Source: an uncultured Gammaproteobacteria bacterium
GTDB taxonomy: Bacteria > Pseudomonadota > Gammaproteobacteria > SZUA-229
Assembly (NCBI GenBank): GCA_963807625.1
Contig: CAWECN010000016.1
Coordinates: 69,824-133,823, forward strand
Direction of reading: 5' to 3'
Length of the DNA: 64,000 bases
The notes beneath the pieces were generated by a model that worked only from the letters and a program-made list of their open reading frames with translations, was not told the DNA's origin and ran no database searches. Shown here one piece after another: positions 2,737-38,702 of the stretch (the stretch's first letter is position 1; each line of letters begins with the position of its first letter). A program made the position numbers and the translations under genes.

Positions 2737-3429
2737 ATGAGCGTAAAGAAATTATCAATTGCAGCATTGACCTTTGCTTTTAGTACATGCACTTTCACTG
2801 CGCAGGCCAATAACGATAGCGGGCGTACCTGGGCACCAGGTCAGCCAGCTAACCCATACTGGCAGGCGCCTAGCTGGCCTGATCGTAATGCACAACGTCC
2901 CGCGCCCTCCGCGCCTCCAGTAAACAACTCAGGTTATCCGGGAAATAATTACCCACAGTACAATACTGACAGTAACACACCGCCTCCTCCGACAGGCCCT
3001 TATAGAGGCACCCCCGCACCTCGTAATCCTGCCCCTGCACAACGCCAGGTGCAGCGAACTGAACCTTATTACAGGGGCGCTCCAGCGCCACGGCCACCTG
3101 CTGGATATAACGGACCATCAGCATTTTATACTCCAGGTTATAACCCATACAGAGACAACCGCAGAAGCAATAATCGCTGGGGTGGTAACAAGTTCTGGGG
3201 AAAAAGCGGTCCAAGTTCATGGATGAGCCCGAGTAAGAACAACTGGGAGAATAGCTGGGACGATATGATCAATTCGCCGAGCCGTATGGGTGAGATGCCT
3301 GGCGGCTGGACGGCGCCTGAAGTCTCAGTACCCAACCCGATAGACATGGGTGACCAGATGCAGGACAACGCACAGGATCTGCCTTCTCAGATGAAAGATG
3401 GGAATATCGGTAATGACGTTTCGAACTAG
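2737..3429 (+). CDS. Secreted Pro/Asn/Tyr-rich low-complexity protein
   Basis: Signal peptide ending AQA; Pro-rich middle; Trp/Met-rich C-terminus; followed by terminator. Confidence 0.75.
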   Translation: MSVKKLSIAALTFAFSTCTFTAQANNDSGRTWAPGQPANPYWQAPSWPDRNAQRPAPSAPPVNNSGYPGNNYPQYNTDSNTPPPPTGPYRGTPAPRNPAPAQRQVQRTEPYYRGAPAPRPPAGYNGPSAFYTPGYNPYRDNRRSNNRWGGNKFWGKSGPSSWMSPSKNNWENSWDDMINSPSRMGEMPGGWTAPEVSVPNPIDMGDQMQDNAQDLPSQMKDGNIGNDVSN

Positions 3430-3449
3430 ATAATGATTGTCAGCATCTG

Positions 3450-3480
3450 AAAAAAACCCTGCCTTGCAGGGTTTTTTTTT
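3450..3480 (+). terminator. Intrinsic terminator
   Basis: aaaaaaaccctgc-ctt-gcagggttttttttt. Confidence 0.85.
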
Positions 3481-3816
3481 CGTGTAGGTTCATTTGCCGA
3501 AGAATGCGCAGCATATATTTTTCTATATATGTCTATCCAAGGAGATAATTCAGTTATATGCTGAGATAATCCATTAAATACTTTAAATACAGTAACATAT
3601 ATCTTTTATTGAATGTATTACATTACATGTTGTCAGTTATTGTTGTCTAGAAAAAATCCAACAATAAACAGATATTTAGTCTATTCTTATCTTTCTGAAA
3701 CAACATCTTTTCAGTTGTAACGCACCCAAAATGTAAATGAGTTTTTTGCGTACTTAAATTATTACAGCAAGTATTAATTTGTAATAGGTAATTGGTAAAA
3801 ATAATTTTGCATTTCT

Positions 3817-5901
3817 ATGTTTAAAAAATTCACACAATTAGATTCTGACTTGTTGCAAAAACAGGTCAATCCTCTTTTTGAAGCGACACGATCAGGTGGA
3901 TTAGCGAACATATTTGCAGCATGGCTAGTGTATGCGCTTTTATTTGGTACACACCACCAGGAAAATGCGTTGTTGCTGAGTATCGCTGTCACATTCCTAT
4001 CGGTTGTTCGTATTCTATTTTCAGATGAATATCTACGAGTGTGTAGTAAGAATGTTAAATTATATCTTGGAATTCATCTCTCTCTAACATTTGTCATAGG
4101 TATTGCATGGGGTTTGTTTGCACTTATGCAATCAGCACATGATGATTCAGTTATCAGAAATATGGTTTTCCTGATTAACTTTGGGATGATCGCAGGTAGT
4201 CTCGCGACACTATCGATATGGGTGCCTGCATATGTCGCTTATATAACACCTCAAGCAGTCTGTATCTTTGCTGTATTGGCAATTCAGAATAATAGTATCA
4301 GTTCATACATGGCCGCCGCATTTTTTGTATTTATTATAATAATGATATCTACCAGTCTAAAAGTAAGCCGTGGCCATAAGCGCGAGATGCTGCTCAATTT
4401 AAAAAATAAAGAACTGATCAACGATCTTAATGATGAAGTAATTAACAGAACACGCACACAGGTCTTATTAGAAGATAGTAAGCGCGATCTCGAAGATAAG
4501 GTAAGAGCAAGAACGATACAACTGGAAAACATTAATGAATCCCTGGTAAAAGAGATCTCAGACAAGGAAAAGGCCGAAGAAAGCCTCGAGTATATCGCTT
4601 ATCATGATGAGCTCACCAATCTGCCAAACAGGAACCTGCTGATCGACCGTATTAATGACACCATCGAGACGGCACATCGCAACAATGAAAAACTGGGCAT
4701 CCTGTTCCTTGACCTTGACCGGTTCAAGGCTATCAATGACAGCCTGGGCCACCATATCGGTGATAAATTAATTCAGGAAGTTGCTAAACGTCTACTACAT
4801 ACATTACGTAAGGAAGACACCATCTCACGTAATGGCGGTGATGAATTTGTCGTTGTCATAAAACGTATGCAGAATAGCGACGAAGCAATTTTGATCGCCC
4901 AGAAGCTGATCGAGAACCTGACAAACATATTCGAGATCGATTCACATAAGATACATATCGGCGCCAGTATCGGTATTAGTGTCTACCCAAATGATGGGGA
5001 ATCAGCTGTAGAACTGGTCAGAAATGCTGATACAGCAATGTTTAATGCTAAAAAGAGTGGCGGTAACCGTTTGCAATTCTATGATGAAAGCATGTCAAAC
5101 AGATTACGTGAGCGCCTTATCCTGGAAAATGAACTGCATACGGCCCTTGAACGGGATGAATTCCATATGGCTTACCAGCCGCAGGTTAACTGTTTGACGG
5201 GGCAAACAGTTGGTTTTGAGGCACTTCTCCGCTGGTCCAATAAAAACCTCGGTACTATCGGTCCTGACCAGTTTGTACCACTGCTCGAAGAAACTGGCTT
5301 GATCTATTCTGTCGGCAAATGGGTCATTAAAGAGGTGATCGAGTTTGTACGATCAGGCAAGACCAGAGATCTTTCGATTTCGATAAATCTATCAGCACTT
5401 CAATGTGGTGATATTGCTCTGGTAGATTTTATTAATAATGAGATCATTACATCAGGCATCAACCCTGCCTGTATTGAATTTGAGATAACGGAATCTCTAC
5501 TGATAAATGATTTTGAAACCACCGAAGTTTTTTTGAGTGAGCTAAATAAGTCTGGCTGTTCGATCGCATTAGATGATTTTGGTACAGGTTATACTTCGAT
5601 GAGCTACCTAACCCGACTGCCGATCGATTGCATTAAAGTTGACCAGAGCTTTATCAGCAATATCGATAGTAATATGACTCTCGAAAACATCGTAAAAGCT
5701 ATCGTGAATATGAGCACTAGCCTCGGTATGAAAAATGTTTTTGAAGGCGTTGAGACAGAAGCTGAACTCGATAAGATCAAACAGCTAAATGGCGTCATCG
5801 TGCAGGGCTACCTCTATAGCAAGCCACTTGATGTGCATGGTGTTCTTAACTGGCTGGCTGCTGACAGGTTGAACATCACTCAACAGCACGCTAAATATTA
5901 G
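3817..5901 (+). CDS. Membrane-anchored diguanylate cyclase/phosphodiesterase (TM-coiled coil-GGDEF-EAL)
   Basis: About 5 TM helices; HDELTNLPNR, RKED I-site, GGDEF, FEALLRW, DDFGTG. Confidence 0.92.
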   Translation: MFKKFTQLDSDLLQKQVNPLFEATRSGGLANIFAAWLVYALLFGTHHQENALLLSIAVTFLSVVRILFSDEYLRVCSKNVKLYLGIHLSLTFVIGIAWGLFALMQSAHDDSVIRNMVFLINFGMIAGSLATLSIWVPAYVAYITPQAVCIFAVLAIQNNSISSYMAAAFFVFIIIMISTSLKVSRGHKREMLLNLKNKELINDLNDEVINRTRTQVLLEDSKRDLEDKVRARTIQLENINESLVKEISDKEKAEESLEYIAYHDELTNLPNRNLLIDRINDTIETAHRNNEKLGILFLDLDRFKAINDSLGHHIGDKLIQEVAKRLLHTLRKEDTISRNGGDEFVVVIKRMQNSDEAILIAQKLIENLTNIFEIDSHKIHIGASIGISVYPNDGESAVELVRNADTAMFNAKKSGGNRLQFYDESMSNRLRERLILENELHTALERDEFHMAYQPQVNCLTGQTVGFEALLRWSNKNLGTIGPDQFVPLLEETGLIYSVGKWVIKEVIEFVRSGKTRDLSISINLSALQCGDIALVDFINNEIITSGINPACIEFEITESLLINDFETTEVFLSELNKSGCSIALDDFGTGYTSMSYLTRLPIDCIKVDQSFISNIDSNMTLENIVKAIVNMSTSLGMKNVFEGVETEAELDKIKQLNGVIVQGYLYSKPLDVHGVLNWLAADRLNITQQHAKY

Positions 5902-5904
5902 TGT

Positions 5905-7113
5905 TTAACCAACACTGGCCTTTAACACCATTATCGCGTTCAAACCACCAAAAGCAAAGGAGTTGGATATAGCAACATCGACTTTTTGCTGGCGTGGATC
6001 ATTCGCTACATAGTCCAGATCACATTCCTCATCCACTTCAGTTATATTAACCGTGGGTGGAATCAAGCCGTGATGTATCGTCAGTGCTGTAGCAATGAGC
6101 TCTATTGCACTGGATGCACCCAAAGCATGACCGTGCATAGACTTGGTAGATGACACTGCAAGATCTTTGGCATGATCGCCAAAGACCTGGTGGAGTGCCT
6201 GCGTCTCAGCCAGATCATTTGATTGCGTTCCTGTACCGTGTGCATTGACATAGTCTACGTCTTCAATATTCATATCGGCATTCTGTAGCGCGTTTTTAAT
6301 TGTTTGCGCGATATTATCGACATCCGGGCGAGTGATGTGTCCGGCATCTGATGACATAGCATAACCGGCAATTTCTGCATAGATTCGTGCACCACGCTGT
6401 TTAGCATGTTCTTCAGATTCGAGTACCAGGATACCGGCACCCTCAGCCAGGCTCATGCCGTTACGATTTTTACTGAAAGGACGGCATACATCGTTCGAAA
6501 CCACACGCATAGCATCCCAGGCTTTTAATAAACCATAGGGAAACGGTGCATCGGTAGCGCCAACCACGGCCACATCAACCAGACCTAGTTGAATCATCAT
6601 GCTGGCCTGAATAATCGCATGTGCTCCTGATGAACATGCGCTTGCAACAGAGAATACTGGGCCTTTTATACCCAGGTGTTTACTTACACTGCTCGCCACC
6701 GCACTGTGCATACCCTTGGGAATCGAGAGTGGGTGAACTCGTGGACGATTATTTTTATAGAGTTTTTTATAGCCTTCTTCATCAGTGTGCTTGCCACCAC
6801 CGCCACTGCCTATTATTGCAGCAGCATTAAGAAGGCATTCATCGTTTTCCAATCCAGCATCAATGACTGCCTGATTAGCAGCCAATATAGCCAATTGTGA
6901 AAACCTGTCTAACAGGGGAAGTTCATCAGCAGAAAATAGTTCAGTTTCATCGTAATCAGGCACTCTTGCGCCGATAGAAATTTTTACACCTTCTAATGGT
7001 GTAAAAGGTTTAATGGCACAATGACCGTTACTGATACCTTGCCAAAACTCATCCAGGGTTAAACCAAATGCTGAAACAACACCCAGACCAGTGATCATTA
7101 CTCGGTGACTCAT
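5905..7113 (-). CDS. Beta-ketoacyl-ACP synthase, FabF/NodE-like
   Basis: ASACSSG active Cys, NAHGTGT, KSMHGHALGAS, SNSFAFGG; LLKAWDAMRVV..DVCRPFS resembles NodE. Confidence 0.9.
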   Translation of the reverse strand: MSHRVMITGLGVVSAFGLTLDEFWQGISNGHCAIKPFTPLEGVKISIGARVPDYDETELFSADELPLLDRFSQLAILAANQAVIDAGLENDECLLNAAAIIGSGGGGKHTDEEGYKKLYKNNRPRVHPLSIPKGMHSAVASSVSKHLGIKGPVFSVASACSSGAHAIIQASMMIQLGLVDVAVVGATDAPFPYGLLKAWDAMRVVSNDVCRPFSKNRNGMSLAEGAGILVLESEEHAKQRGARIYAEIAGYAMSSDAGHITRPDVDNIAQTIKNALQNADMNIEDVDYVNAHGTGTQSNDLAETQALHQVFGDHAKDLAVSSTKSMHGHALGASSAIELIATALTIHHGLIPPTVNITEVDEECDLDYVANDPRQQKVDVAISNSFAFGGLNAIMVLKASVG

Positions 7114-7138
7114 TGTATTAGGCTCGACTAAAAGTTTT

Positions 7139-7366
7139 TTAGTGATGAATGCCTTTCAACCTGTTCACGATGTCACTAACTGTGACGATGGAAGGAATAA
7201 CTTCATTTGGAATTTCGACATCAAATGCTTCTTCAAGCTCGAATATGACGGTAATCGCTTTTAGAGAGTCTATTCCCAGTGTCATCAATTCAGACTCTGG
7301 TTTAATGTCTTCTATTTTACAGTGGGAAATTGTGGCAATAATTTGTGCTACTTTATTAAAAATCAT
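7139..7366 (-). CDS. Acyl carrier protein (NodF-like)
   Basis: LGIDSL phosphopantetheine site, ELEEAFDVEIP; directly upstream of the KS. Confidence 0.9.
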   Translation of the reverse strand: MIFNKVAQIIATISHCKIEDIKPESELMTLGIDSLKAITVIFELEEAFDVEIPNEVIPSIVTVSDIVNRLKGIHH

Positions 7367-7640
7367 AGTTTTACTTCAGGTAATAGTTATTTAATAACGT
7401 ATAGCCTATCAACTGAGTTGCTCACAAGATAACTAAATCCCGCCTAGTCCATTAACATCCATAGAGCCTATTCCTTTCAGTACGCAGAAAATAAATCAAT
7501 ACAGCATGTACTAATAGAATCTCTTAATAATACGTATTTAACGGACATTCGTCCATGATTTTTTTCATATATTTCAAGTAGATTGTAAATATTATTAAAA
7601 TAAAAATTAATTTGCTGTTTTAAGTAAAAATTGCCAATAT

Positions 7641-8732
7641 ATGGGTGCAACTTATATCGATTTTATAATAATAAAGGTAAATCCAGTGAAGATTGACCAT
7701 GAAGTAGCTGCCGAAGAGCAGGTAAAAGAACCCGAGAGCAAAGCCAGCAGTACATATAAAGAATATACTCAGTTCAGTACGCGCTATGACCCTGATACCA
7801 GTGCTATCTGGTGCTGGATGCAGCCGGAGCCGCGCCCTTGCCTGAATACCACGCTTATCGATGAGCTTGTACAACTGCAATATCAGCTCACCACCACATA
7901 CAAAACTCAACATCCGGATAACATCTGGCCGTTCCGCCATCTCATCCTGGCGTCTAAAACACCCGGCATCTACAATCTTGGTGGTGATCTTGGCTTGTTT
8001 AAACAATGTATCGTAAATCGTCAGATCGAAAGGCTGAGAAACTATGCATATAAGTGTATTAATTTACTGCACAGTAACATCGATAACCTCGACCTGCCGA
8101 TCACCACCGTTTCTCTGATACAGGGTCAGGCCCTGGGCGGTGGTTTTGAAATGGCTCTGTCCAGTGATGTCATCGTTGCTGAGCGAAGCTCAAAGATGGG
8201 ATTCCCGGAGATCCTGTTTAATCTTTTTCCCGGCATGGGTGCGTATAACCTTCTCACTCGCAGGATTGGATCAGCACTAGCAGAACGGATTATCCTCAGT
8301 GGCAAGACATATACTGCTGAAGAACTCTATGATATGGGGGTAATCGATGTGTTGGCTAAAGATGGTGAGGGTGAACAGGCGATAGAAGATTATTTAAAGA
8401 GTCATAACCAGTCACATAATACTATCCGTTCGATCAAAAAGATCCGTCAGATCGTGCACCCTATCACGCGTCAGAATCTGTCTGATATCGTCGATATCTG
8501 GGTCGACGCTGCCATGGACCTGAGCGACAAAGACCTGGCAAAAATGGAACGTCTATTACATCTTCAAAAAGATATGAAAGACAGTAAAACTATCGAACAG
8601 CAGAATAATGTTTTAAAGTCACGCCGAGGAGACTGGCGTAAGATCAGTGATGTAAGCTTTCCCCTGATCACCCATCTCGGTGAAAACGTTTCGCGTAACA
8701 GAAGAAAGAACCAGAGTCGAAGACGGGATTAG
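7641..8732 (+). CDS. rpfF: RpfF-type crotonase (DSF synthase-like enoyl-CoA hydratase/thioesterase) with C-terminal extension
   Basis: PRPCL, NLGGDL, QGQALGGGFE and GFPEILFNLFPGMGAY with both catalytic Glu; true start may be GTG 7686. Confidence 0.82.
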   Translation: MGATYIDFIIIKVNPVKIDHEVAAEEQVKEPESKASSTYKEYTQFSTRYDPDTSAIWCWMQPEPRPCLNTTLIDELVQLQYQLTTTYKTQHPDNIWPFRHLILASKTPGIYNLGGDLGLFKQCIVNRQIERLRNYAYKCINLLHSNIDNLDLPITTVSLIQGQALGGGFEMALSSDVIVAERSSKMGFPEILFNLFPGMGAYNLLTRRIGSALAERIILSGKTYTAEELYDMGVIDVLAKDGEGEQAIEDYLKSHNQSHNTIRSIKKIRQIVHPITRQNLSDIVDIWVDAAMDLSDKDLAKMERLLHLQKDMKDSKTIEQQNNVLKSRRGDWRKISDVSFPLITHLGENVSRNRRKNQSRRRD

Positions 8733-8778
8733 AATAATCAACTGTCTATAAGGTATTACCTGGGCAAGGGAGCGATGG

Positions 8779-9531
8779 ATGTTTAAATTCATAAAAAACC
8801 TCATTGTATTGCCCATCACCTGGCTTTTGCTCATCATCCTGAGTGTCATACTGTACGTACTATCGCATCTGCCACGAACATTTTCTGGACGTTACTACCA
8901 TTTCCTCGCCCGTTTCTGGTGCCGCCTCTTCGTAAAGTCATTAGACGTTGATCTAAAGCTGATTCATAAAAACATACAACCATTGCCTGAGCAGTTCATC
9001 CTGATAGCAAACCACCCGTCGGCACTGGAAGACTTTGCTGTCCCGGCCCTGTTTGACATCTATCCACTTGCCAAGGCCGGTGTCCGAGACTGGTTAGTTC
9101 TTGGACGCATCAGTGATTATGCTGGAACGATCTATGTTGCCCGGAGCAGCGCGAGTTCTCGTCAGGCGGCTAAGGAGGCACTGTCTGAAGCGGTGAAATC
9201 TGGTAAGAATATCGTTATATTCCCCGAAGGCGGCTGCAAAGGTGCTCGTATATTCGAGAAGTTTCATACTGGTGCATTTGAGATATCGTTACAGACAGGC
9301 ATACCGATCTTGCCAGTGTTTCTGCAATATATCGATCAGCAAGCTTTTGTATGGCAGGATGAGCCTCTGGTTAAAAAGCTTTGGCAGATATTTAAATCAG
9401 ATAATAACCAGGTCAATTATTATGTTTTTGATGCCATCCGGTCAGATGGTTTTAACGATAGAGAAAGTTTCGCAGAACACGCGCACTCTTTATACCTGCA
9501 ATGGCAGAAAGAATACCTTGATAGTTTATGA
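8779..9531 (+). CDS. Lysophospholipid acyltransferase (PlsC family)
   Basis: NHPSALED (NHxxxxD-type) and IFPEG motifs; N-terminal TM. Confidence 0.88.
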   Translation: MFKFIKNLIVLPITWLLLIILSVILYVLSHLPRTFSGRYYHFLARFWCRLFVKSLDVDLKLIHKNIQPLPEQFILIANHPSALEDFAVPALFDIYPLAKAGVRDWLVLGRISDYAGTIYVARSSASSRQAAKEALSEAVKSGKNIVIFPEGGCKGARIFEKFHTGAFEISLQTGIPILPVFLQYIDQQAFVWQDEPLVKKLWQIFKSDNNQVNYYVFDAIRSDGFNDRESFAEHAHSLYLQWQKEYLDSL

Positions 9532-9611
9532 TGCTGAGTACTTCGTAGTATCACAGTATGACTGTCTGAGCATCACTCAGGACTCGTCCTTGAGTCGATA
9601 GTGTCTACTTA

Positions 9612-10424
9612 CTACTCTGCGATAGCTGTGAGCTTGGCGTTGCCGAACCACTTGAGTGTCAGGGCTGTGGTTACACCGACATTTTCAGCACGAACCAGGA
9701 AGTTCTCAGCCAGGTTAACGAATAGTGGATCATTCGCTGGTAATGCGATTCCAATAGGCTCATATGTCAGCAGTGAAACCACTGATTGGAAACCACTGTC
9801 AGGGTAACGTTTCATCACGCTCAAACAGATCGGGAAATCTGTAAGCATGGCTTTAGCTTTACCGTTTGCGACCAGGTTTGTGCCTTCATCGGCATCTGCA
9901 ACCGGTATACGTTTGAGTTCCGGTAGCAGCTCTTTTACAAAGTTTTCACTGGTGGTACCTTTGACCACGGCCATCGTCAGGTCAGCCTCTTTTAAGTCGG
10001 CCGCTTCGTCAGCTTTAGCCATGGTCTCTTCTTTAGTGATCAGACATTTTCCTGAAACAAAATACGGGCCGACAAAAGCAACACGCATATTTCTATCTAC
10101 AGTCATCGTCATATTTGATAGCACGATATCGACCTTGCCACTTTCCAGGGCCGGTATCAGTTCTTCGAATGGTAGAACTTTTGTTACCAGTTCTACATCC
10201 ATGCTTTCAGCGAGAGCATTTGCCATATCGATATCGTAACCGATGACCTCACCAGTCATGGTCTTTTCAGACATGAGCGGCATGGTTCCCGATGTACCGA
10301 GAACCAGTTTCCCAGATTTCTGAATACGAGATAGTACCGGTGAATTATCAGCAGCATATACGGTACTGCTGATGACGAAGAATAATGTTGTACAAGCAAG
10401 TATTAAACGTGCAGGATATTTCAT
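9612..10424 (-). CDS. Amino-acid ABC-type periplasmic binding protein (family 3)
   Basis: Signal peptide; GYDID, LIPALESGKVDIVLSNMTMTVDR, KGTTSE. Confidence 0.88.
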   Translation of the reverse strand: MKYPARLILACTTLFFVISSTVYAADNSPVLSRIQKSGKLVLGTSGTMPLMSEKTMTGEVIGYDIDMANALAESMDVELVTKVLPFEELIPALESGKVDIVLSNMTMTVDRNMRVAFVGPYFVSGKCLITKEETMAKADEAADLKEADLTMAVVKGTTSENFVKELLPELKRIPVADADEGTNLVANGKAKAMLTDFPICLSVMKRYPDSGFQSVVSLLTYEPIGIALPANDPLFVNLAENFLVRAENVGVTTALTLKWFGNAKLTAIAE

Positions 10425-10747
10425 AGTTATTTCCTGGGTTTTTTGTGAGTTATTATAAATTCGCCGTGCAAATTATCTGGTAAGCGCACACTAGTCAATA
10501 GGATAAAGCGTAATTTACTAATTACTGTGGACAGCAAAGGTGCCTCATATTAGTAAATATTAATATTTAGTCGCATTTATCAGGTAAGTTCATGTATAAT
10601 CCGCGTTCAACTTCTGGTGCACTTCGGTCTGCACCTGTATTTTTAGAGCAGTAATCTATTACCGCTTACCCTGGAACTAACACGTTTCCGCCTGGACCGA
10701 CCCAAACTTAAGTGTATTGGGCGGGCCGATCCTTAGAGAATATTACA

Positions 10748-12097
10748 ATGTCATTTGAATCCCTCGGCCTTATGGCTGAATTACTCCGTGCTGTATCTGA
10801 AAAAGGTTATAGCTCTCCCACTCCGATACAGAAACAGGCTATTCCTGTTGTCCTGCAAGGTCGCGACCTGATGGGTGGCGCGCAGACAGGTACCGGTAAA
10901 ACCGCAGGTTTCACCCTGCCCTTGCTACAACGTTTGGTAGAGACTGATGTGCCACGCAAAGGACGCCGTCCACTGCGTGCACTGATACTGACCCCAACCC
11001 GTGAACTGGCAGCACAGGTATCAGATAGTGTCCGTGATTACGGTAAGCACCTGGCATTACGCTCTACAGTCGTATTTGGTGGTGTCAGCATCAACCCACA
11101 GAAGATGAAGCTGATCAAAGGTGTCGATATACTGGTAGCAACTCCAGGGCGACTGCTCGATCATGTCGGACAACGCTCTGTCGATCTTTCACAAGTTGAT
11201 ATCCTGGTGCTCGATGAAGCTGACCGCATGTTAGACATGGGTTTTATTCACGATATCAAAAAAGTGCTGGCGCTGGTTCCTAAGAAGAAGCAGACATTAC
11301 TGTTCTCAGCCACTTTTTCTGATGAAATTAAACAACTTGCCAATGGTTTGCTAAAAGATCCTGTACTCATCGAAGTGGCTCGACAGAACTCAGCAACCGA
11401 TACCGTCACACAGGTCATACACCCCGTCGACAAAAGTCGTAAACGTGAACTACTCTCTTTCCTGATAGGTTCGAACAACTGGCAGCAGGTACTGGTGTTC
11501 AACCGTACCAAACATGGCGCCAATCGACTCGCCGAACAACTGAACAAGGATGGCATTACCGCTGTTGCGATCCATGGTAACAAGAGCCAGGGTGCACGTA
11601 CCCGTGCACTGGCCGATTTTAAAGCCGGCAAAGTGCGTGTACTGGTTGCGACCGACATCGCTGCACGCGGTATCGATATAGATCAGCTTCCGCATGTGGT
11701 GAATTTTGAGTTACCCAATGTTGCGGAAGATTACGTACATCGTATCGGCCGTACCGGTCGTGCCGGCAATGAAGGTGAAGCCATGTCACTGGTCTGCGTC
11801 GATGAGCTGAAACTGCTGAAGGATATCGAGAAACTCATCAAGCGCGAGATCCCTAAAGACGTGATCGAAGGTTATGACCCTGACCCATCGATAAAAGCAG
11901 AGCCCATAAATAAAGGACGAGGTCAGCAACAACAGAAACGAGCTCCTCGTAATAAAGCTGGCAGACCAGGCAAGAATGCCAGGAGAAATGCTACTACTGA
12001 TAATGCTGCGGGAAACAATTCGCCGTCGCCATGGAAAAAACGCACTAACAATAAGAAACGTACGAGTAACCATAATCGTACCAGGGATGCTGCCTAG
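10748..12097 (+). CDS. rhlE: DEAD-box RNA helicase RhlE
   Basis: Q motif, [29 protein letters not shown]; basic tail; ATG start MSFESLGL. Confidence 0.92.
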
Positions 12098-12169
12098 CAG
12101 GATGCCGTGGAATAACGTCCGCAATTAATAAACATCGTATTAAATAAACAATATATTCGGAATAGAACA

Positions 12170-13786
12170 ATGTTAATAACTGCAAATCTAACTATGCAAT
12201 TTGGCCCCAAGCCACTATTTGAAAACGTCTCTGTGAAATTTGGCGAAGGTAATCGTTATGGTCTGATAGGTGCCAATGGCTGCGGTAAATCGACCTTCAT
12301 GAAAATCCTGGGTAGTGACCTTGAGCCGACTGCTGGTAATGTGTCAAAGGACCCGAACGAACGTATCGGCAAGTTGAAACAGGATCAGTTCGCGTATGAA
12401 GAATTCAACGTCATCGACACTGTTCTCATGGGGCACGAAGAATTATGGGCGGTCAAATCTGAAAAAGATGCGATCTACGCAAATCCCGAGATGAGCGAAG
12501 AAGATGGTATACGTGCCGGTGACCTGGAAGCTGAATTTGCTGAGATGGACGGTTACTCTGCAGAAGCACGTGCCGGTGAATTGTTACTGGGTGTTGGTAT
12601 TCCGATCGAGCAGCACTATGGTCCGATGAGCGAAGTTGCACCGGGCTGGAAGCTACGTGTCCTGCTGGCACAGGTACTGTTCTCCGAACCTGACATCATG
12701 TTGTTAGACGAGCCGACCAATAACCTTGATATCAATACTATCCGCTGGCTGGAAGACACCTTGAATGCCCGTAACTGTACCATGATCATCATCTCGCATG
12801 ACCGTCACTTCCTGAACAGTGTCTGCACGCACATGGCTGACCTGGATTATGGTGAAGTACGTATCTACCCGGGTTCGTATGATGAATACATGACAGCTGC
12901 AACACAGGTTAAAGAACGTCTGCAGTCTGAAAATGCCAAGAAGAAAGCACAGATCGCCGAACTGAAAAGTTTTGTTAGCCGCTTCTCTGCAAACGCATCA
13001 AAATCCAAGCAGGCTACTTCCCGTGCGAAACAGATCGACAAGATACAACTGGCAGAAGTGAAACCATCAAGTCGGCAAAACCCTTACATCATTTTTGAAG
13101 AAGAGAAAAAACTGCATCGACTGGCACTTGAAGTTGAAGGCCTGACAAAGGGATATGATGATGGTGATTATCTATTCGCAAATCTCGATATGATGGTCGA
13201 GGTCGGTGAGCGTATCGCTATCATCGGCCCTAACGGTATCGGTAAAACAACATTATTGAGATGTCTTTATGGAGATCTGGAACCTTCTGCGGGTACAGTT
13301 AAATGGTCTGAGAACTCGCAGCTAGGTTATTATGCACAGGATCACGCCTCTGACTTCAAAGAAGATAAAACATTGATCGACTGGATGAGTTATTGGGGCA
13401 AAGATAGCGATGACGAACAGTCTATCCGAGGTACACTTGGACGTCTGCTGTTCTCATCTGATGATATCAACAAAAAAGTCAGCGTTATCTCAGGTGGTGA
13501 ACAGGGACGTATGCTGTTTGGCAAGCTGATGTTACAGAAAAACAATATCCTGCTGATGGATGAGCCGACTAACCATCTCGATATGGAGTCCATCGAATCC
13601 CTGAACCTGGCACTGGAAAATTATCCAGGCACCCTGTTCTTCGTCAGTCATGACCGTGAATTCGTATCGTCATTGGCTACACGGGTCATCGAAATGACAC
13701 CAAAAGGTCTTGTTGATTTCCGTGGTACTTATGAAGAATACCTGGCTAGCCAGGAATTAGATCAAGGGAAACGCAAGGCATCATAG
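12170..13786 (+). CDS. ybiT: ABC-F family ATPase YbiT-like
   Basis: Two ABC domains ([23 protein letters not shown]); [18 protein letters not shown] linker. Confidence 0.9.
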
Positions 13787-13801
13787 AAATATTTATCGTG
13801 G

Positions 13802-13836
13802 AAAAAAAACGGCAACCATAATGGTTGCCGTTTTTG
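13802..13836. terminator. Bidirectional intrinsic terminator
   Basis: aaaaaaaacggcaacc-ataat-ggttgccgttttt between convergent genes. Confidence 0.85.
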
Positions 13837-13864
13837 TTTATGGCCCTTTGAAATACAGTAGAAC

Positions 13865-14341
13865 CTATGTACCTTGCGGTATTATTGGTGCTGGTGCTGG
13901 TGCTGGTAGTGGAGCGTTCTGCTGACTACCCTGGCCACCACTTCCCATACCACGGCCATTACGATAACGGTACTGATGCTGGTATTGGTACTGGTTAGGA
14001 TTACCCTGGTTACCTGCGCCACTTCCTTGACCACCCTGTCCGTAACCGCCCTGGCCGCCTTGACCACCGCGACCATAACCCTGACCACCTTGACCACCTT
14101 GACCACCACGACTATAACCCTGACCGCCCTGGCCACCTTGACCACCGCGAGCATAACCCTGACCGTATCGATCCTGTCCGCCACGGTCGTAACTTTGGCC
14201 ACCCTGCCCATAACCACCCTGGCTGCCTTTGTTATAGCCACCACCTTGACCACCACCGCCTTTAGCAAATACGTTTGATGCAGCTGCAACGGCTACTGAC
14301 AGAAAAATGCTACCAATGGCGGTTTTAATTTTTGAATTCAT
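13865..14341 (-). CDS. Secreted Gly/Gln-rich repeat protein (paralog A)
   Basis: AGGAG RBS; signal peptide ending VFA-K; GGQGGQG(Y) repeats; QYQYQHQY; APAPAP tail. Confidence 0.8.
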   Translation of the reverse strand: MNSKIKTAIGSIFLSVAVAAASNVFAKGGGGQGGGYNKGSQGGYGQGGQSYDRGGQDRYGQGYARGGQGGQGGQGYSRGGQGGQGGQGYGRGGQGGQGGYGQGGQGSGAGNQGNPNQYQYQHQYRYRNGRGMGSGGQGSQQNAPLPAPAPAPIIPQGT

Positions 14342-29008: not shown

Positions 29009-31477
29009 ATGCAAACCTTGGCAGATAAACAGGTACCAGCACCACCGTTAGTATCTATCTTAATCCTGTCCGCTGCTGCCCTGTGTTACGAAGTCCTGCT
29101 GATAAGGCTGTTTTCCATCATTCACTGGCATCATTTCGCATTCATGGTGATCAGTATCGCACTACTCGGTTACGGAGCCAGCGGCAGTTTCATCACCATA
29201 TTTCGCTGTCGGTTGCTAGATAACTATGACCGGGTATTTATCGCCAATACCCTGCTATTCGGACTTTCATCAATCATCTGTTTTATCATCGTCCAGCAAC
29301 TGCCGTTTAATACCCTGGAAATAATTTGGGACAGCTCACAGTGGCAACGGCTGTTATCGAGTTATCTGCTACTCACGCTGCCCTTTTTCTTTGTCGCCAA
29401 TGTAATAGCGCTTACTATCATGCGTTTTCATCAACAGATCCCGCAGGTCTATGGTATTGACCTCATCGGTGCCGGTATCGGTGCCTTGCTGGTAATGTTA
29501 TTGCTGCAGCTGTTTACGCCAGATGACATACTGCGTGTATTGTCGGCCAGCGCCATGGTCGCCGGCTTTTTTGCACTGCGAAATCTGGATAAAACACAGA
29601 AGCAATTAACGGTATCGATACTTATATTAGGTATACTCGCAGTCTTTATGGTGCCGCAGAAATGGCTGGATCTGCGCATGTCAGAATACAAAGGTCTGGC
29701 ACAGACACTGCAGGTGAAAGATACCGAACTACTCTTATCTCATAGCTCCCCCCTCTCCCAGACGGATGTCATCGATAGCCCATTTATTCCATTTAGAAAT
29801 GCGCCAGGTTTGAGCCTGCAGAGCCCGGCTTCACCGCCCGAACAACTGGCAGTATTCAGAGATGGTGACGAAATGACTACCATCGATCATGTGACAGATA
29901 AGAGTTCACTGGAATATCATGACTATATGAGCTCTGCACTGCCATACCACACGCACCGATCACCAAAAAATATCCTGATCCTCGACTCAGCTACCGGCGC
30001 TCAGATACTGCAGGCACAGTATTACGATATACCGCAGATAGATGCCGTCGAACCGGACAGGAAACTCAGTCAGTTGCTCACTGAACAGTATGCCGATTAC
30101 TTCGGCTGGTTAAATCTGAAAGACAAAGTAAAAATTCACACCATATCAGCTCGTGGATTTAGCGCATCACCCAATAGCTATGATCTCGTCATCAAGGGAC
30201 CTTCCGGCGGTTCTACTGGCGGTTCGGCAGGCGTGTATGCACTCTCTGCCTCATATGACCTTACTGTCGAGGCGCTGCAGTCCTACCTGTCTCTGCTCGC
30301 CCCTGACGGTCTGTTAAGTATCACCCTGTGGACAAATACCCCTGCTCATGGAAATTTGAAGTTATTTGTGACCGCAGTGACAGCAATGAAGAACGCAGGC
30401 ATCAGTGACCCTGAAAAGAACATCGCATGGATCCGCAGCTGGAATACCGCAACACTGATATTAAAAAGAACCGTTTTAACCGACGACGAGATAAGCCGGG
30501 TACGAGAATTCAGTATGTCTCGCAGCTTTGACCTGGCATGGTTGCCGGGGATCAAGCAGGAAGAAGTCAACAGGTACCAGCTGTTGCAGGAGCCTGTTTT
30601 TTATCTTGCAGCCCGTTCACTAATGAATATGCCCGGTGCGGATATGACGGAAAACACTTTTGTCCAAAAATATAAATACGATATACAGGCGAGTACCGAT
30701 AACCGGCCATATTTCAATAATTTTTTCAGCTGGTCGAGCCTGGAAGAATTCCTGTCCATGCCCGGGCAAACTGGTATATCCATGATCGGTGTCGGTTACC
30801 CGACCTTGCTCGTCACCCTGTTACAGGCGATTGCGGCTGCATTCTTTCTTATATTGTTACCATTGTTTTTTGTACGAACCGATAAAAACAGGTCGGACAG
30901 GATAGATGCCAGAGACAGTCGCAAGAATATTATCATCTACTTCATGGCGATTGGCCTGGCTTTTCTCTTCATCGAGATCGCCATTATCGAGAAGTTTACC
31001 CTTATTCTTAGCCAGCCACTGTATGCCGTCGCCGTCACATTATGTGGCTTCCTGATTTTTTCGGGGCTTGGCAGTCTGTATGTCCAGCACTGCATGAAGA
31101 CTGCGACACCTGCTTTCATGCCAATCATGTTGCGCCGAGCTGTACTTCTGATCTCTTTGATTGTTATCGCTTATATCGCTGTTTTACCATTTATCAGCAG
31201 TGTGGTGATGGCTTTACCCGAAACGGCACGGATAATTTCAGCATTTGCGCTGGCAGCACCACTGGCATTCGTTATGGGTATGCCCTTTCCGCTGGGTATG
31301 GCCAGGGTACAGCAGAGCAACCCTCAGCTGATACCCTGGGCCTGGGGTATCAACGGCTGTGCCTCCGTGCTGAGTGCAATAGTAGCAGTTTTGCTGGCGA
31401 TCGAAATCGGTTTTAATGGCGTCATGTTAAGCGCCGTCGTGCTTTACATGGTAGCGTGGTTTAGTCATAAAATGTAG
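29009..31477 (+). CDS. Multi-TM membrane protein with central spermidine-synthase-like SAM-fold domain
   Basis: FAFMVISIALLGYGASG, YGIDLIGAG, VEPD, STDNRPYF, MGMPFPLG, WAWGING. Confidence 0.8.
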   Translation: MQTLADKQVPAPPLVSILILSAAALCYEVLLIRLFSIIHWHHFAFMVISIALLGYGASGSFITIFRCRLLDNYDRVFIANTLLFGLSSIICFIIVQQLPFNTLEIIWDSSQWQRLLSSYLLLTLPFFFVANVIALTIMRFHQQIPQVYGIDLIGAGIGALLVMLLLQLFTPDDILRVLSASAMVAGFFALRNLDKTQKQLTVSILILGILAVFMVPQKWLDLRMSEYKGLAQTLQVKDTELLLSHSSPLSQTDVIDSPFIPFRNAPGLSLQSPASPPEQLAVFRDGDEMTTIDHVTDKSSLEYHDYMSSALPYHTHRSPKNILILDSATGAQILQAQYYDIPQIDAVEPDRKLSQLLTEQYADYFGWLNLKDKVKIHTISARGFSASPNSYDLVIKGPSGGSTGGSAGVYALSASYDLTVEALQSYLSLLAPDGLLSITLWTNTPAHGNLKLFVTAVTAMKNAGISDPEKNIAWIRSWNTATLILKRTVLTDDEISRVREFSMSRSFDLAWLPGIKQEEVNRYQLLQEPVFYLAARSLMNMPGADMTENTFVQKYKYDIQASTDNRPYFNNFFSWSSLEEFLSMPGQTGISMIGVGYPTLLVTLLQAIAAAFFLILLPLFFVRTDKNRSDRIDARDSRKNIIIYFMAIGLAFLFIEIAIIEKFTLILSQPLYAVAVTLCGFLIFSGLGSLYVQHCMKTATPAFMPIMLRRAVLLISLIVIAYIAVLPFISSVVMALPETARIISAFALAAPLAFVMGMPFPLGMARVQQSNPQLIPWAWGINGCASVLSAIVAVLLAIEIGFNGVMLSAVVLYMVAWFSHKM

Positions 31478-31480
31478 CTG

Positions 31481-31834
31481 CTATTCATCAGGCAGTGCAT
31501 ATTCTGTCTGCGTGCCCACATTCGACTGATCATCGAACACCCGGTATTCATAGCTGCAGATCTTGATAGCATCGCCATGTTTTATCTCTTTTTCTCTCAC
31601 AGAGATATTATTCACATAGGTACCATTGGTACTATTCAGGTCGTAAATGGTTAAATCGAGCTGCTCTGGCAGGTAGTTATTGGGGACCAGTTTTATCAGG
31701 GCATGCTCGCCGCTGACCTCACCATCATCCAGCTGTAAGCTGTTACCGTGGTTACGTCCGATGGTGAATTCGCCTGCAGATAAATCGATCTCTGAAACGA
31801 CAGCACCGTTAATAATATGTTTAAGTTTTATCAA
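31481..31834 (-). CDS. Stand-alone FHA domain protein
   Basis: TIGR, VSGEHA, DLNSTNGTYVN. Confidence 0.88.
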   Translation of the reverse strand: MIKLKHIINGAVVSEIDLSAGEFTIGRNHGNSLQLDDGEVSGEHALIKLVPNNYLPEQLDLTIYDLNSTNGTYVNNISVREKEIKHGDAIKICSYEYRVFDDQSNVGTQTEYALPDE

Positions 31835-35804: not shown

Positions 35805-38702
35805 TTAACGGGCCGAACCTGAGCCAAATATATCACTTAACAGCTCAGGCTCGTTGATATGGTAACCTTGCGCGTAGTCTACACCGAGTTTACGTAAGTC
35901 CTTTAAGATATCTTCACTCTCGACAAATTCGGCGATGGTTTTTATCCCCATGCGATGACCTATCTCATTGATCGCCGAGACCATAGCAGCATCGATAGGA
36001 TCATTGACCATGTCTTTGACGAAGAATCCATCGATCTTGAGATAATCGATCGGTAGCTGTTTAAGATAGCCGAATGAAGAAACACCGCTGCCAAAATCAT
36101 CCAGCGAGAACAGGAAGCCAGCTTCATGCAGTGCTTCGATAAACTTGAGTGCTTTAGTAAAGTTAGCGATTGCTGCTGTCTCTGTTATTTCAAAACAGAA
36201 ATTTGATGTCTTCAGATTCATATCCGCTGCCAGATCAAGGACAAAACTCATGAAACTTTTGTCACATATAGAGTTGCCGGAGATATTTATCGATAACATC
36301 ATATCTTCAGGTATCTTGTTTTCATATACCCTGGTGAAAACATTCTCGACGACGTATTTGTCAATATCGATGATGACATCGTATCGCTCTGCGGCAGGTA
36401 TGAAACTGTCAGGCAGTATATAGGTTCCGTCATCCTGACGCATTCGCGATAAAATTTCGTAATGGCTGCCAAATCCATTCTGCAGCGAAATAATCTCCTG
36501 TGCGAACAGGATGATGTCTTTCTTTTCTATGGCATGTTTGACACGAGTTGCCCATTGCATCTCAACCTGGCGCTGCTCAAGTACGGCGTCATCCTTGGTA
36601 TAGACATGGACGCGATTTCGACCGTGATCCTTGGCTGCATAACAGGCGATGTCCGCTTCTTTCATCACAGTATTGATATTTTCAGTCTGAGGCGTTATCT
36701 CGACGACACCGACACTGGCACCGACATGGAAGAATTTGCCTTCCCAGGCAAACCGGAAATCCTGTACAGCCTGTATAATCTTCTGTGCCGTCGCCTGAGC
36801 GATGGTCGCATCACAACCACGCAATAAAACACCGAACTCATCACCGCCTAATCGTGCCAGGGTGTCTGCCTGTCGCGTATTGTCACTGATTATAAGTGTC
36901 ACCTGACGCAGCAGCTCATCGCCAGCAGTATGGCCACAGGTATCATTAACTACCTTGAATTGATCGAGGTCGAGGTATAACAGCGCATTGTTTTTATTTT
37001 CCTGCTTTGCTATCTCGATGAGTTGCTGCAGCTGAAGTTCAAACTCTCTCCGGTTGACCAGTCCGGTCAAAGAATCGTGGGTCGCCTGCCAGGACATCTG
37101 TCGCGCCATCTCACGTGTATCACTGACATCACGGAATACGACAACGACACCGAGCAGCTGATTTTTACTGTTTTTTATCGGCGAGACAGACTGTTCGATA
37201 TCAGAAACTTTTCCCTGTCGATTCGTGATACGTAGATTTCCTATACCCAGAGAACTATGACCACTTTTCAGACATTGATCGACAACATCCTGTAATGATC
37301 CATTATCATCGGTATCGTCCTCTATACATACCTCGTTCAAGTGTTTGCCGAGCGATTCATTTATCGACCAGCCTGTCAGCTTTTCTGCAACGGGGTTCAT
37401 GAAGTCGATATAACCATGTGAATCTATCGTAATCACTGCATCTGCAATCGAGTGTAGTGTTACCTGCGCCTGTTCCTTCTGATTGATGAGTTGATCATCG
37501 ATATATTGCCGTTCTAATTCTGCACTGGCTCGTGCTGCAAAGACTGGCAGGATAGCGCGTGCCAGATCGATCTTCCATGCGGAGGCTCTATGTGAATCAA
37601 CCAGTACCAGTACACCGATAACTTTGCCTTCATGGTCTTTCATGGCAACACCCATATAACTTTCAGCATCCAGCCTTTTCATCATCTCATCTTCTGGAAA
37701 CAGGTTCTGTAGACCAGACTTGATGAAGTGCTCACCCTCACTGATAGTCATTTCGCACGGTGTCCCAGTGACAGAGCAGTTCCCACATTTTTCGATAAAG
37801 TGGCTGTCCCAGACAGCCAGTGGGTTAAGCAGGTCAGGATTAGTCTCATCAAGTTTTGCCAGCAGGACAAAACGTGTGCGGAGTACGTCAGATAAGGTAT
37901 GTGCCAGGCTCTTGAAAAAATCCATACCGACTGTATCTGATGTGCCGGCAAGCAAGGACTGCAATGCACTCTCGATACGTTTACGATCACTGATGTCTGT
38001 CATCGTGCCAACAGCTCGTGTAGGAGCACCAGATTCATCAAATTCTACTGCCTGTCCCCGCCACTGTACCCATACCCAGTCGCCCGCAGCATTCCTCAGA
38101 CGGAACTCATCAACGAACCTGGGCGCATCGCCATAGAGATGCAGTTCGAGTTCATCTAAAACTCTTTTTGCATCATCCGGATGCAAGGAGCTACGCCAGG
38201 TCTCAAGGTTTAGTGCGACCGAATGCTCCTCATAACCCAGGATCTGTTCCCAGCGTGGACTGTAATAGACCTTATCTGTTTTTATGTTCCAGTCCCAGAG
38301 ACCATCCTGAGAACCATTGATGGCATATGACAGACGTTGCTCCTTTTTAGCATGTTTCTTACGTTGTTTTATCTCGTTGATCAGCTCATCTTCTTTATGC
38401 GCTAACTCGATGAGCTGTTTGTACTGTTTGTCCTGCATGAGACGTATAGTGGTATAGAAAAAGCCAATGCTTGCTCCGACGAGGATGGGAATAAAGAATT
38501 TCTGTAGAGTCAATTCCTGGAACGGAATGTTTAGTACATATAGATGCTGACCAAAGGCCATGATCAGCACAGCGGTTACAGAAAATAATATTCGCCAGAG
38601 ATAGCCTTTCCAATGTCTATATATGAGCGCTAGAATTCCTGATTTTCTTGGAGAAATGTCTGTCATCATCCTTATTACATCGCTGTTATTTGGGAGACTC
38701 AT
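35805..38702 (-). CDS. PAS/GAF/PAS-GGDEF-EAL signalling protein
   Basis: 2 TM; DGLWDWN PAS; GAF; HDSLTGLVNR, RLGGDEF, EIL-type EAL, DDFGSG. Confidence 0.92.
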   Translation of the reverse strand: MSLPNNSDVIRMMTDISPRKSGILALIYRHWKGYLWRILFSVTAVLIMAFGQHLYVLNIPFQELTLQKFFIPILVGASIGFFYTTIRLMQDKQYKQLIELAHKEDELINEIKQRKKHAKKEQRLSYAINGSQDGLWDWNIKTDKVYYSPRWEQILGYEEHSVALNLETWRSSLHPDDAKRVLDELELHLYGDAPRFVDEFRLRNAAGDWVWVQWRGQAVEFDESGAPTRAVGTMTDISDRKRIESALQSLLAGTSDTVGMDFFKSLAHTLSDVLRTRFVLLAKLDETNPDLLNPLAVWDSHFIEKCGNCSVTGTPCEMTISEGEHFIKSGLQNLFPEDEMMKRLDAESYMGVAMKDHEGKVIGVLVLVDSHRASAWKIDLARAILPVFAARASAELERQYIDDQLINQKEQAQVTLHSIADAVITIDSHGYIDFMNPVAEKLTGWSINESLGKHLNEVCIEDDTDDNGSLQDVVDQCLKSGHSSLGIGNLRITNRQGKVSDIEQSVSPIKNSKNQLLGVVVVFRDVSDTREMARQMSWQATHDSLTGLVNRREFELQLQQLIEIAKQENKNNALLYLDLDQFKVVNDTCGHTAGDELLRQVTLIISDNTRQADTLARLGGDEFGVLLRGCDATIAQATAQKIIQAVQDFRFAWEGKFFHVGASVGVVEITPQTENINTVMKEADIACYAAKDHGRNRVHVYTKDDAVLEQRQVEMQWATRVKHAIEKKDIILFAQEIISLQNGFGSHYEILSRMRQDDGTYILPDSFIPAAERYDVIIDIDKYVVENVFTRVYENKIPEDMMLSINISGNSICDKSFMSFVLDLAADMNLKTSNFCFEITETAAIANFTKALKFIEALHEAGFLFSLDDFGSGVSSFGYLKQLPIDYLKIDGFFVKDMVNDPIDAAMVSAINEIGHRMGIKTIAEFVESEDILKDLRKLGVDYAQGYHINEPELLSDIFGSGSAR

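Follow-up and report, generated by a model that had tools for sequence, protein, structure and literature searches.

A conserved gene module that joins an RpfF-type crotonase to its own acyl carrier protein and ketosynthase in uncultured Gammaproteobacteria: a probable variant of DSF-type signalling

Members of the signal family named diffusible signal factor (DSF) are believed to arise when RpfF acts on intermediates of housekeeping fatty acid synthesis. A locus of an uncultured gammaproteobacterium raises the question of why an RpfF-type gene should stand beside genes for an acyl carrier protein (ACP) and a ketosynthase (KS) of its own. The locus lies within a stretch of 64,000 nucleotides, which was analysed as a whole and is called the window here (GenBank assembly GCA_963807625.1, contig CAWECN010000016.1, positions 69,824 to 133,823). 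An earlier note on this DNA had described five genes: a membrane GGDEF-EAL gene, convergent KS and ACP genes and, beyond a divergent spacer, a crotonase and an acyltransferase gene. All five were found at the coordinates and on the strands claimed, and Pfam and NCBIfam agreed on their domains. The stop codons of the convergent KS and GGDEF-EAL genes are indeed 3 nt apart (5902-5904), and the AT-rich spacer, which had been put at about 270 bp, measures 274 bp (7367-7640) with a GC content of 28.1%, compared with 45.1% for the whole window. It separates the acp-KS from the crotonase-acyltransferase transcription unit. The cluster is a real, conserved gene module and probably a variant of DSF-type signalling that is absent from the literature searched. 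We lean towards reading it as a module for the synthesis of a DSF-family signal (cis-2-unsaturated fatty acid type), in which an RpfF-type synthase would work with an ACP of its own and an elongating KS related to NodE. The product and receptor roles discussed below are predicted from sequence and gene position.

The crotonase gene (7641-8732, + strand, 363 aa; Pfam ECH_1 2.2e-25) very probably encodes an RpfF-type (DSF) synthase, as had been proposed. Its four best matches in the PDB were 7zq7 (4e-53), RpfF of Xanthomonas campestris pv. campestris (3m6m, 1.6e-50) and Cronobacter RpfF (6dgn and 5fus, both about 1e-48). Three of these are named RpfF or share the RpfF sequence; 7zq7 is titled 'crotonase/enoyl-CoA hydratase family protein'. 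The next crotonase in this search followed only at 7e-17, more than 30 orders of magnitude behind. Across 18 aligned sequences, E170 (in GGGFE) and E190 (in FPE) do not vary, and both line up with the corresponding glutamates of 3m6m; we take the catalytic glutamates of the Xanthomonas enzyme to be E141 and E161, which are 20 residues apart. In NCBIfam, the protein scored above the cutoff of NF006452/PRK08788 (365 bits, cutoff 177). An AlphaFold2 model, built from a 13-row alignment, was poor (mean pLDDT 42.7). An alternative GTG start at 7686, preceded by AAAGG, would give a protein of 348 aa. This is the start position used in relatives, and with it the spacer would measure 319 bp.

The evidence that carries our reading is the linkage of these genes in other genomes. 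Eighty homologous loci were probed by tblastn with the window proteins and with the RpfC-like kinase, REC-HD-GYP protein and methyltransferases of relatives (L numbers denote related loci and G numbers genomes, G000 being the window's own genome). Group A, the window's clade, comprises 20 loci in the crotonase tree and the fragments L031 and L077, labelled Gammaproteobacteria or Thiotrichaceae. It has the gene order of the window, with KS in 17 and ACP in 20 of 23 loci, a count that includes L079, which gave no tblastn match at all. Group B consists of seven loci (L041, L051, L065, L066, L069, L070 and L074) labelled Thiohalobacter, Sedimenticolaceae or Gammaproteobacteria. Here the order is crotonase, RpfC-like kinase, ACP, KS in all seven, followed by a CMAS-family methyltransferase in five and a REC-HD-GYP gene in two; in its fullest form, this alternative order reads rpfF, rpfC, ACP-KS, methyltransferase, rpfG. 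ACP-KS is thus linked to RpfF-type genes in two gene orders over deep divergence. The earlier note had named a lack of conserved linkage as the outcome that would speak against its proposal, and the synteny search found the opposite for ACP, KS and RpfF; the methyltransferase of the relatives, which is lacking in the window, had not been foreseen. Because ACP-KS occurs inside rpfF/rpfC/rpfG-type clusters of distant relatives, the module would belong to DSF-type signalling and not to bulk lipid synthesis. In the crotonase tree (78 rows, quick method, midpoint-rooted), groups A and B form separate clades. A scheme of two independent ACP-KS recruitments was dropped, since an approximately unbiased test does not reject a single clade (log-likelihood difference 0.13, p 0.476).

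A reverse search starting from the KS covered 399 other Gammaproteobacteria, sampled evenly, and a further 400 genomes of the phylum. Among the 399, matches at E 1e-120 or better were obtained in three genomes, G162 (63% identity), G212 (61%) and G275 (50%). G162 and G212 have the order crotonase, RpfC-like kinase, ACP, KS, methyltransferase, with a REC-HD-GYP gene additionally in G162. A KS match of at least 54% identity was thus found in 2 of 799 sampled genomes, and in both it is linked to a crotonase; the linked KS clade is rare. In G212, an integrase-core (rve) gene lies between the KS and the methyltransferase of the group-B cluster (L116:10182-11093).

The 50 loci outside groups A and B, whose crotonases are 37-51% identical to that of the window, show in what company the family is otherwise found. 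A convergent RpfC-like HisKA-HATPase-REC-Hpt kinase is present in 44, a REC-HD-GYP gene in 23, a GGDEF-EAL gene in 16 and at least one of these in 47, and ACP or KS in none of the 50. In alphaproteobacterial loci, a REC-PAS-GGDEF-EAL gene (by Pfam) stands where rpfG would be, and in L053 and L057 a GGDEF-EAL gene is directly convergent with the crotonase. Judged by these domains and neighbours, the crotonase family is the rpfF of rpf clusters, wired to cyclic di-GMP (c-di-GMP) signalling. Four of the 50 loci (L062, L067, L068 and L072) fall into the group-B crotonase clade. Three of them are on contigs too short to tell; in L072, on the complete chromosome CP070738.1, the crotonase is sister to that of L074, and tblastn detected neither a kinase nor an ACP or KS within 7 kb.

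The Xanthomonas rpf cluster consists of the RpfF synthase, the hybrid kinase RpfC, the REC-HD-GYP protein RpfG and the ligase RpfB. The window shares with it a synthase of the same crotonase clade with both catalytic glutamates and, as predicted output, c-di-GMP turnover, and distant relatives of the window crotonase stand in the order rpfF, rpfC, rpfG. However, RpfC, RpfG and RpfB are missing from the window, a private ACP and KS have been added, and a GGDEF-EAL protein with six transmembrane (TM) helices is encoded where the sensor would be. In addition, the published model takes 3-hydroxyacyl-ACP from housekeeping fatty acid synthesis (FAS). Clusters of the rpf type are reported in PMC4504480 from Methylobacillus, Thiobacillus, Leptospirillum and Methylophaga. 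No AMP-ligase (RpfB), RpfC- or RpfG-type gene was found among 60 window open reading frames (ORFs) scanned, in agreement with what had been claimed, and none of the remaining 48 window ORFs encodes a FabG, phosphopantetheinyl transferase, FadD or RpfC/G-type protein.

The KS (5905-7113, - strand, 402 aa; Pfam ketoacyl-synt N 6.5e-41, C 6.6e-37) and the ACP (7139-7366, - strand, 75 aa; PP-binding 7.4e-13, with a GIDSL phosphopantetheine site) are an extra, dedicated pair beside housekeeping FAS, as had been suggested. The own genome has acpP (G000:C6:88076-88309) directly upstream of fabF (acpP-fabF span C6:86721-88309), the acpP product being 76% identical to E. coli AcpP, and also encodes a FabB-like KS on contig C11. 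The window KS is 40% identical to the own FabF, 39% to E. coli FabF (162/416 columns) and 31% to the own FabB-like KS. Its identity to NodE of S. meliloti and S. fredii, both taken from annotated nodF-nodE regions, is 46-48%, and group-B KS proteins are 54-65% identical to it (64% for L065). The KS passes PRK07314 (415 bits, cutoff 387); it scores below the cutoff of the fabF equivalog TIGR03150 (429 bits, cutoff 493.75) and is encoded outside the acpP-fab cluster, both of which set it apart from a housekeeping FabF. C160, H292, H329 and F388 align with C164, H304, H341 and F401 of E. coli FabF (counting Met1), presumably the Cys-His-His triad and the Phe gate residue of FabF. In a maximum likelihood tree of 31 sequences, which was rooted on FabB and had two NodE and two FabF sequences among its rows, all 17 group-A KS fall into a single clade (95/97) nested within a group-B grade (A and B together 24 rows, 87/93). 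NodE is placed next to groups A and B, together with one long-branch KS of a polyketide synthase (PKS) from the own genome (93/88), and FabF stands apart (98/96). The comparison with NodE and FabF that the earlier note had called for thus puts the KS in a clade of its own next to NodE.

By means of a dedicated ACP and KS, NodF and NodE (hsnA/hsnB), rhizobia make the unsaturated acyl chain that Nod factors carry. As in the window, an acp gene directly upstream of a KS gene forms an extra pair beside housekeeping FAS, and the window KS is grouped with NodE apart from FabF. The ACP does not follow this pattern: it is 74% identical to the ACP of L001, 45-47% to group-B ACPs, 33% to E. coli AcpP and 31-32% to NodF, scores below the cutoff of every NCBIfam ACP model, and is accompanied by no nod genes in the window. 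The description as a NodE/NodF-like pair therefore holds for the KS, which is nearer to NodE than to the own FabF, but not for the ACP, which is as far from NodF as from AcpP. These data bear on the alternative that KS and ACP are a polyketide or NodFE-like starter module making a polyunsaturated chain for a conjugate, with the crotonase as a tailoring dehydratase or isomerase. The position of the KS next to NodE would fit it, as would the label 'nodulation protein E' that some metagenome pipelines give to close KS homologs. We nevertheless consider it very improbable, given that a NodA-like N-acyltransferase, a PKS, an HMG-CoA synthase and other tailoring genes are absent from the window and its relatives, that the ACP is not NodF-like, and that the partner enzyme is not NodA but a crotonase that is specifically RpfF-like, with both glutamates present. 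Elsewhere in the own genome, a KS domain (G000:C19:71004-72296) lies inside a 3727-aa open frame, a large gene resembling PKS or polyunsaturated fatty acid synthases. In the full-text literature searched (subscription journals and supplements lay outside it), NodE, NodF and RpfF occur together in no paper, and there is no description of an ACP, a KS or a CMAS-type methyltransferase in an rpf cluster.

For the DSF-type module that we favour, the following pathway is proposed. Housekeeping FabD would malonylate the dedicated holo-ACP, and the KS, having the Cys-His-His set of an elongating enzyme, would condense an acyl primer with malonyl-ACP and thereby set the chain length or type of the 3-oxoacyl-ACP. 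Housekeeping FabG would reduce this product to 3-hydroxyacyl-ACP, as the cluster contains no reductase. The crotonase would then dehydrate it and hydrolyse the thioester to give a free 2-enoic acid, as expected from its homology with BCAM0581/RpfF and its catalytic Glu pair. Finally, the six-TM domain of the GGDEF-EAL protein could read the lipophilic product, upon which c-di-GMP turnover would change, a step suggested by conserved gene position and by the wiring of the family. That ACP and KS feed the crotonase at all appears likely. PMC4504480 describes RpfF/BCAM0581 as acting on 3-hydroxyacyl-ACP as dehydratase and thioesterase, and PMC13660987 states that the thioesterase activity of RpfF drains acyl-ACP pools and that the REC domain of RpfC restrains RpfF. 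The use of a private carrier would, in addition, keep the broad thioesterase of RpfF away from the housekeeping acyl-ACP pool. A precedent for a FAS-type enzyme outside the housekeeping set that feeds DSF synthesis is FabG2 of Xanthomonas campestris (XCC0416). According to PMC5941067, this accessory reductase for long-chain 3-oxoacyl-ACP has a part in Xanthomonas DSF synthesis. However, FabG2 is a lone reductase encoded far from the rpf cluster, whereas the window has KS and ACP genes linked to the synthase and no reductase gene.

The GGDEF-EAL gene (3817-5901, + strand, 694 aa; Pfam GGDEF 1.1e-48, EAL 4.3e-68) encodes six hydrophobic, predicted TM segments in residues 27-183, followed by a coiled linker, GGDEF and EAL. 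RxxD at 331 (the I-site position), GGDEF at 340, EAL at 468, DDFGTG at 586 and EGVE at 643 are invariant in 10 orthologs; to judge by these residues, the motif set of bifunctional c-di-GMP enzymes is intact. As the earlier note had it, TM helices take the place of PAS: neither PAS nor any other Pfam domain was found on residues 1-240, even at E up to 10. Atlas assigned the TM domain to unnamed clusters at 0.95-0.97, with leads to MASE8, MASE2 and MASE11 below 0.9. In relatives, an orthologous six-TM GGDEF-EAL gene is convergent with the cluster in 11 (L001, L002, L004, L005, L006, L007, L008, L014, L015, L019 and L078) of 13 informative group-A loci, i.e. those with enough sequence beyond the KS or methyltransferase gene, and the convergent gene ends are 0-16 nt apart or overlap. 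The block of GGDEF-EAL, in some cases methyltransferase, KS, ACP and crotonase is intact in L006 and L019, both of which lack any flank gene of the window, and L014 keeps the block although its sole shared flank gene sits on the other side of the cluster. On the strength of this conserved position and of the family's wiring, the GGDEF-EAL protein is a candidate one-component receptor and output, an assignment we put forward tentatively.

In RpfR, sensing is the task of a cytoplasmic PAS domain, and RpfF is bound by an N-terminal domain. Like the RpfF-RpfR pair of Burkholderia cenocepacia and Cronobacter turicensis, which handles the Burkholderia DSF signal (BDSF), the window has an RpfF-type synthase adjoining one GGDEF-EAL protein that would combine sensing with action, and the Cronobacter RpfF structures are among the best matches of its crotonase (about 1e-48). 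The GGDEF-EAL protein differs from RpfR in having six TM helices and no PAS domain. We know of no ACP or KS in the RpfF-RpfR system, and the full-text literature searched contains none either. Group-A crotonases have a basic C-terminal extension of about 50 aa (RRGDWRK..FPLxTHLGE..NRRK..RR; window 8586-8729, residues 316-363). It is present in 13 of 13 aligned group-A proteins, is absent from group-B and other RpfF-type proteins, and gave nothing usable in Pfam at E up to 10. This tail might replace the contact with RpfC or RpfR of other RpfF enzymes.

Several findings weigh against this reading of the locus. The crotonase scores below the cutoff of the curated RpfF equivalog NF053515 (220 bits versus 550). 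That model seems narrow, however, because the crotonase of a Methylobacillus rpf cluster gives the same pattern (375 bits for NF006452, 236 bits for NF053515); Methylobacillus is named as a genus with an rpfF-rpfG-rpfC cluster in PMC4504480. Most group-A relatives share flank genes with the window, so that part of the synteny is simple kinship, and the linkage may reflect one ancient event rather than repeated recruitment. KS homologs at 49-52% identity (G275, G642, G721 and G692) had a crotonase nearby in none of four cases: in G275 the ACP-KS pair adjoins a KAP NTPase gene, and the best matches among other genomes of the phylum, in G642, G721 and G692, reached only 50-52%. A canonical rpf cluster has RpfC and RpfG, or RpfR, beside the synthase, and the window encodes none of RpfC, RpfG, RpfR and RpfB. 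An ortholog of the RpfC-type sensor is also absent from the own genome, in which the RpfC-like kinase of a relative, used as tblastn query, picked up only kinase cores, from residue 184 or so, and the best REC-HD-GYP match spans residues 165-346 only. As there is no reductase gene in the cluster, the FabG step would depend on housekeeping enzymes accepting the private ACP.

The receptor role meets further points of this kind. An idea that the locus combines the same sensor with a swapped output was rejected, as BLASTP and hhalign comparisons of the TM domain with the RpfC-like TM input show no similarity. The hhalign probability against the RpfC-type TM sensor was 0.3%. The TM domain is part of a broad membrane-domain family, itself uncharacterised, whose members occur on proteins of many lengths in 64 of 400 sampled Gammaproteobacteria; two of these genomes, G141 and G308, are marked unpublished and enter no other result given here. 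A family so widespread is not specific to this system. The own genome gave 28 further tblastn matches for GGDEF/EAL genes beside the window gene; with so many, a single adjacency is weak evidence, and it is the comparative data that carry weight. L016 has KS, ACP and crotonase genes without GGDEF-EAL, and cytochrome bd genes occupy that place. There the trio (L016:7171-9227) has genes for cytochrome bd oxidase on one side and, on the other, a split ISL3 transposase gene and then a canonical Cfa gene. The contig carries the label Desulfobulbaceae, and the case may represent a transfer or a binning error.

With these points in view, the sensor function claimed in the earlier note was weakened to a matter of conserved position. 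It is quite possible that the locus encodes a signal synthase and that the GGDEF-EAL protein is not its receptor; the product would then be sensed elsewhere or act on other species, or the enzyme would mainly be a thioesterase, insulated from the housekeeping pool, and GGDEF-EAL would be kept by shared ancestry or regulation. The unrelated and widespread TM domain, the many other GGDEF/EAL genes, L016 and the convergent orientation, which means that the genes are not co-transcribed, all suit this alternative. It accounts less well for the fact that 11 of 13 informative relatives retain the gene in this position, its end overlapping the neighbouring gene end or 0-16 nt away from it, even where flank genes of the window are missing or rearranged, and for the pairing of every other branch of the crotonase family with a c-di-GMP enzyme (HD-GYP, REC-PAS-GGDEF-EAL, or the convergent GGDEF-EAL of L053 and L057). 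In addition, GGDEF-EAL and KS are the most diverged stretch in a DNA comparison with L002, the closest locus by its flanks, which fits a sensor and a chain-determining enzyme changing together: identity is 73-75% in the left flank, 65-66% over 4597-6993 (GGDEF-EAL and KS) and 83% over 7172-14120, and the TM-coding part is unalignable.

The fifth gene, for a PlsC/LPLAT-family acyltransferase (8779-9531, + strand, 250 aa; Pfam PF01553 Acyltransferase 3.5e-19), lies on the same strand as the crotonase gene, 46 nt further downstream, and is probably co-transcribed with it. Its NCBIfam matches, among them 1-acylglycerol-3-phosphate acyltransferase and the lyso-ornithine-lipid acyltransferase OlsA (60 bits, cutoff 300), are all under cutoff. 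The sole PDB relative is PlsC of T. maritima (5kym, 1.3e-5), with NHPSALED aligned to NHQSLMD; in the HX4D motif, a Glu stands at the Asp position of the T. maritima enzyme and is followed by Asp. FPEGG is present, and an N-terminal TM anchor is predicted. In 9 relatives the crotonase is followed by an acyltransferase gene, which in L015 has been relocated. L006, L010, L014, L016, L017 and L019, all with enough sequence, and all seven group-B loci have none downstream of the crotonase. Homologs with 45-53% identity stand alone in unrelated contexts in about 25 of 400 sampled Gammaproteobacteria; three were examined (G331, G068 and G212), with no cluster gene nearby. Its inclusion in the system, as first proposed, was thereby weakened: the gene appears optional, and that it is integral is doubtful.

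Many relatives encode a methyltransferase of about 350 aa from the cyclopropane fatty acid (CFA)/mycolic-acid cyclopropane synthase family (e.g. L001:2674-3720, L002:5399-6451, L065:11988-13148 and L115:10258-11340). It is found in 10 group-A and 5 group-B loci, in group A either between KS and GGDEF-EAL or between ACP and KS, and those of L001 and L002, which were scanned, score 116-126 bits on PRK11705 (cutoff 400). It is absent from the window, L007, L008 and L014, whose KS form one subclade with that of L011 (100/99); the L011 contig ends about 200 nt past the KS gene. CFA-like genes elsewhere in the own genome are only 23-28% identical to the methyltransferases of relatives, and the own genome has lost this gene or never had it. 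L012 looks degenerate, its KS and methyltransferase matches being partial and split over short ORFs (L012:4000-6400), and the module may be decaying there.

Both enzymes bear on the alternative of a specialised lipid pathway, in which ACP, KS and crotonase, with the methyltransferase in relatives, would build an unusual chain that the PlsC-like enzyme installs in a membrane lipid, the GGDEF-EAL protein being a bystander. The tight spacing of crotonase and acyltransferase, their succession in 9 relatives, the weak OlsA match and the methyltransferase family, whose known members modify lipid acyl chains, are all compatible with it; so is an effect of the RpfF thioesterase on the membrane lipid balance of Xanthomonas, mentioned in PMC13660987. 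Against this stand the 6 relatives and 7 group-B loci without a downstream acyltransferase, the stand-alone occurrence of the acyltransferase family, and the crotonase itself, which falls into the RpfF clade and has relatives embedded in sensor kinase/HD-GYP clusters. Moreover, transferring an acyl group from ACP is at odds with a thioesterase that frees the chain from this carrier. We regard a lipid pathway as improbable.

A bolder form of the DSF-type reading is that the clusters encode 'dialects' within a new subclass of DSF-type signals. The NodE-like KS would determine the chain, which the methyltransferase would modify in many relatives and the one-component six-TM GGDEF-EAL protein would read directly in the membrane, and sensor and chain genes would be exchanged together among close relatives to give strain-specific signal/receptor pairs. 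This is prompted by the pattern of divergence from L002, by the contrast to L001, in which the crotonase is 92% and the KS only 66% identical to that of the window, and by the presence or absence of the methyltransferase among near relatives. At present, we consider it a speculation that is unlikely to hold.

A private carrier and KS, in many members with a SAM methyltransferase, implies signal structures beyond what housekeeping FAS supplies and a means to shield the cell's acyl-ACP pool from the RpfF thioesterase. The window's clade has a single membrane GGDEF-EAL protein in place of the RpfC/RpfG two-component relay; if it is the receptor, a lipid signal would act on c-di-GMP by a new and minimal route. 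The module is carried by uncultured Gammaproteobacteria of sediments, salt marshes and vents, about whose cell-to-cell signalling chemistry next to nothing is known. Without GGDEF-EAL, the cluster covers about 3.3 kb and is small enough for heterologous expression and mass spectrometry.

A scan for promoters and terminators over 3400-9700 gave 14 promoter-like sites versus 16.6 expected, none of them above chance, and a repeat search in the spacer found short AT-rich repeats only, likewise not above chance. Sediment and salt-marsh metagenome contigs contain the stretch or near relatives of it. In the metatranscriptome library X20, contigs 90-98% alike to parts of all five genes were found. They derive from relatives and are no evidence of expression, since DNA carry-over is possible and contigs cannot show transcripts. 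Upstream of the GGDEF-EAL gene, the window contains a class-3 lipase gene (1613-2566), which has the same position in L002, L007 and L078, and between the two an ORF without family match (2737-3429). A PAS-PAS-GGDEF-EAL protein of 965 aa is encoded 30 kb from the cluster (35805-38702, - strand). An ORF of 822 aa without Pfam match at E 1e-8 (29009-31477, + strand) adjoins a small FHA-domain gene (31481-31834).

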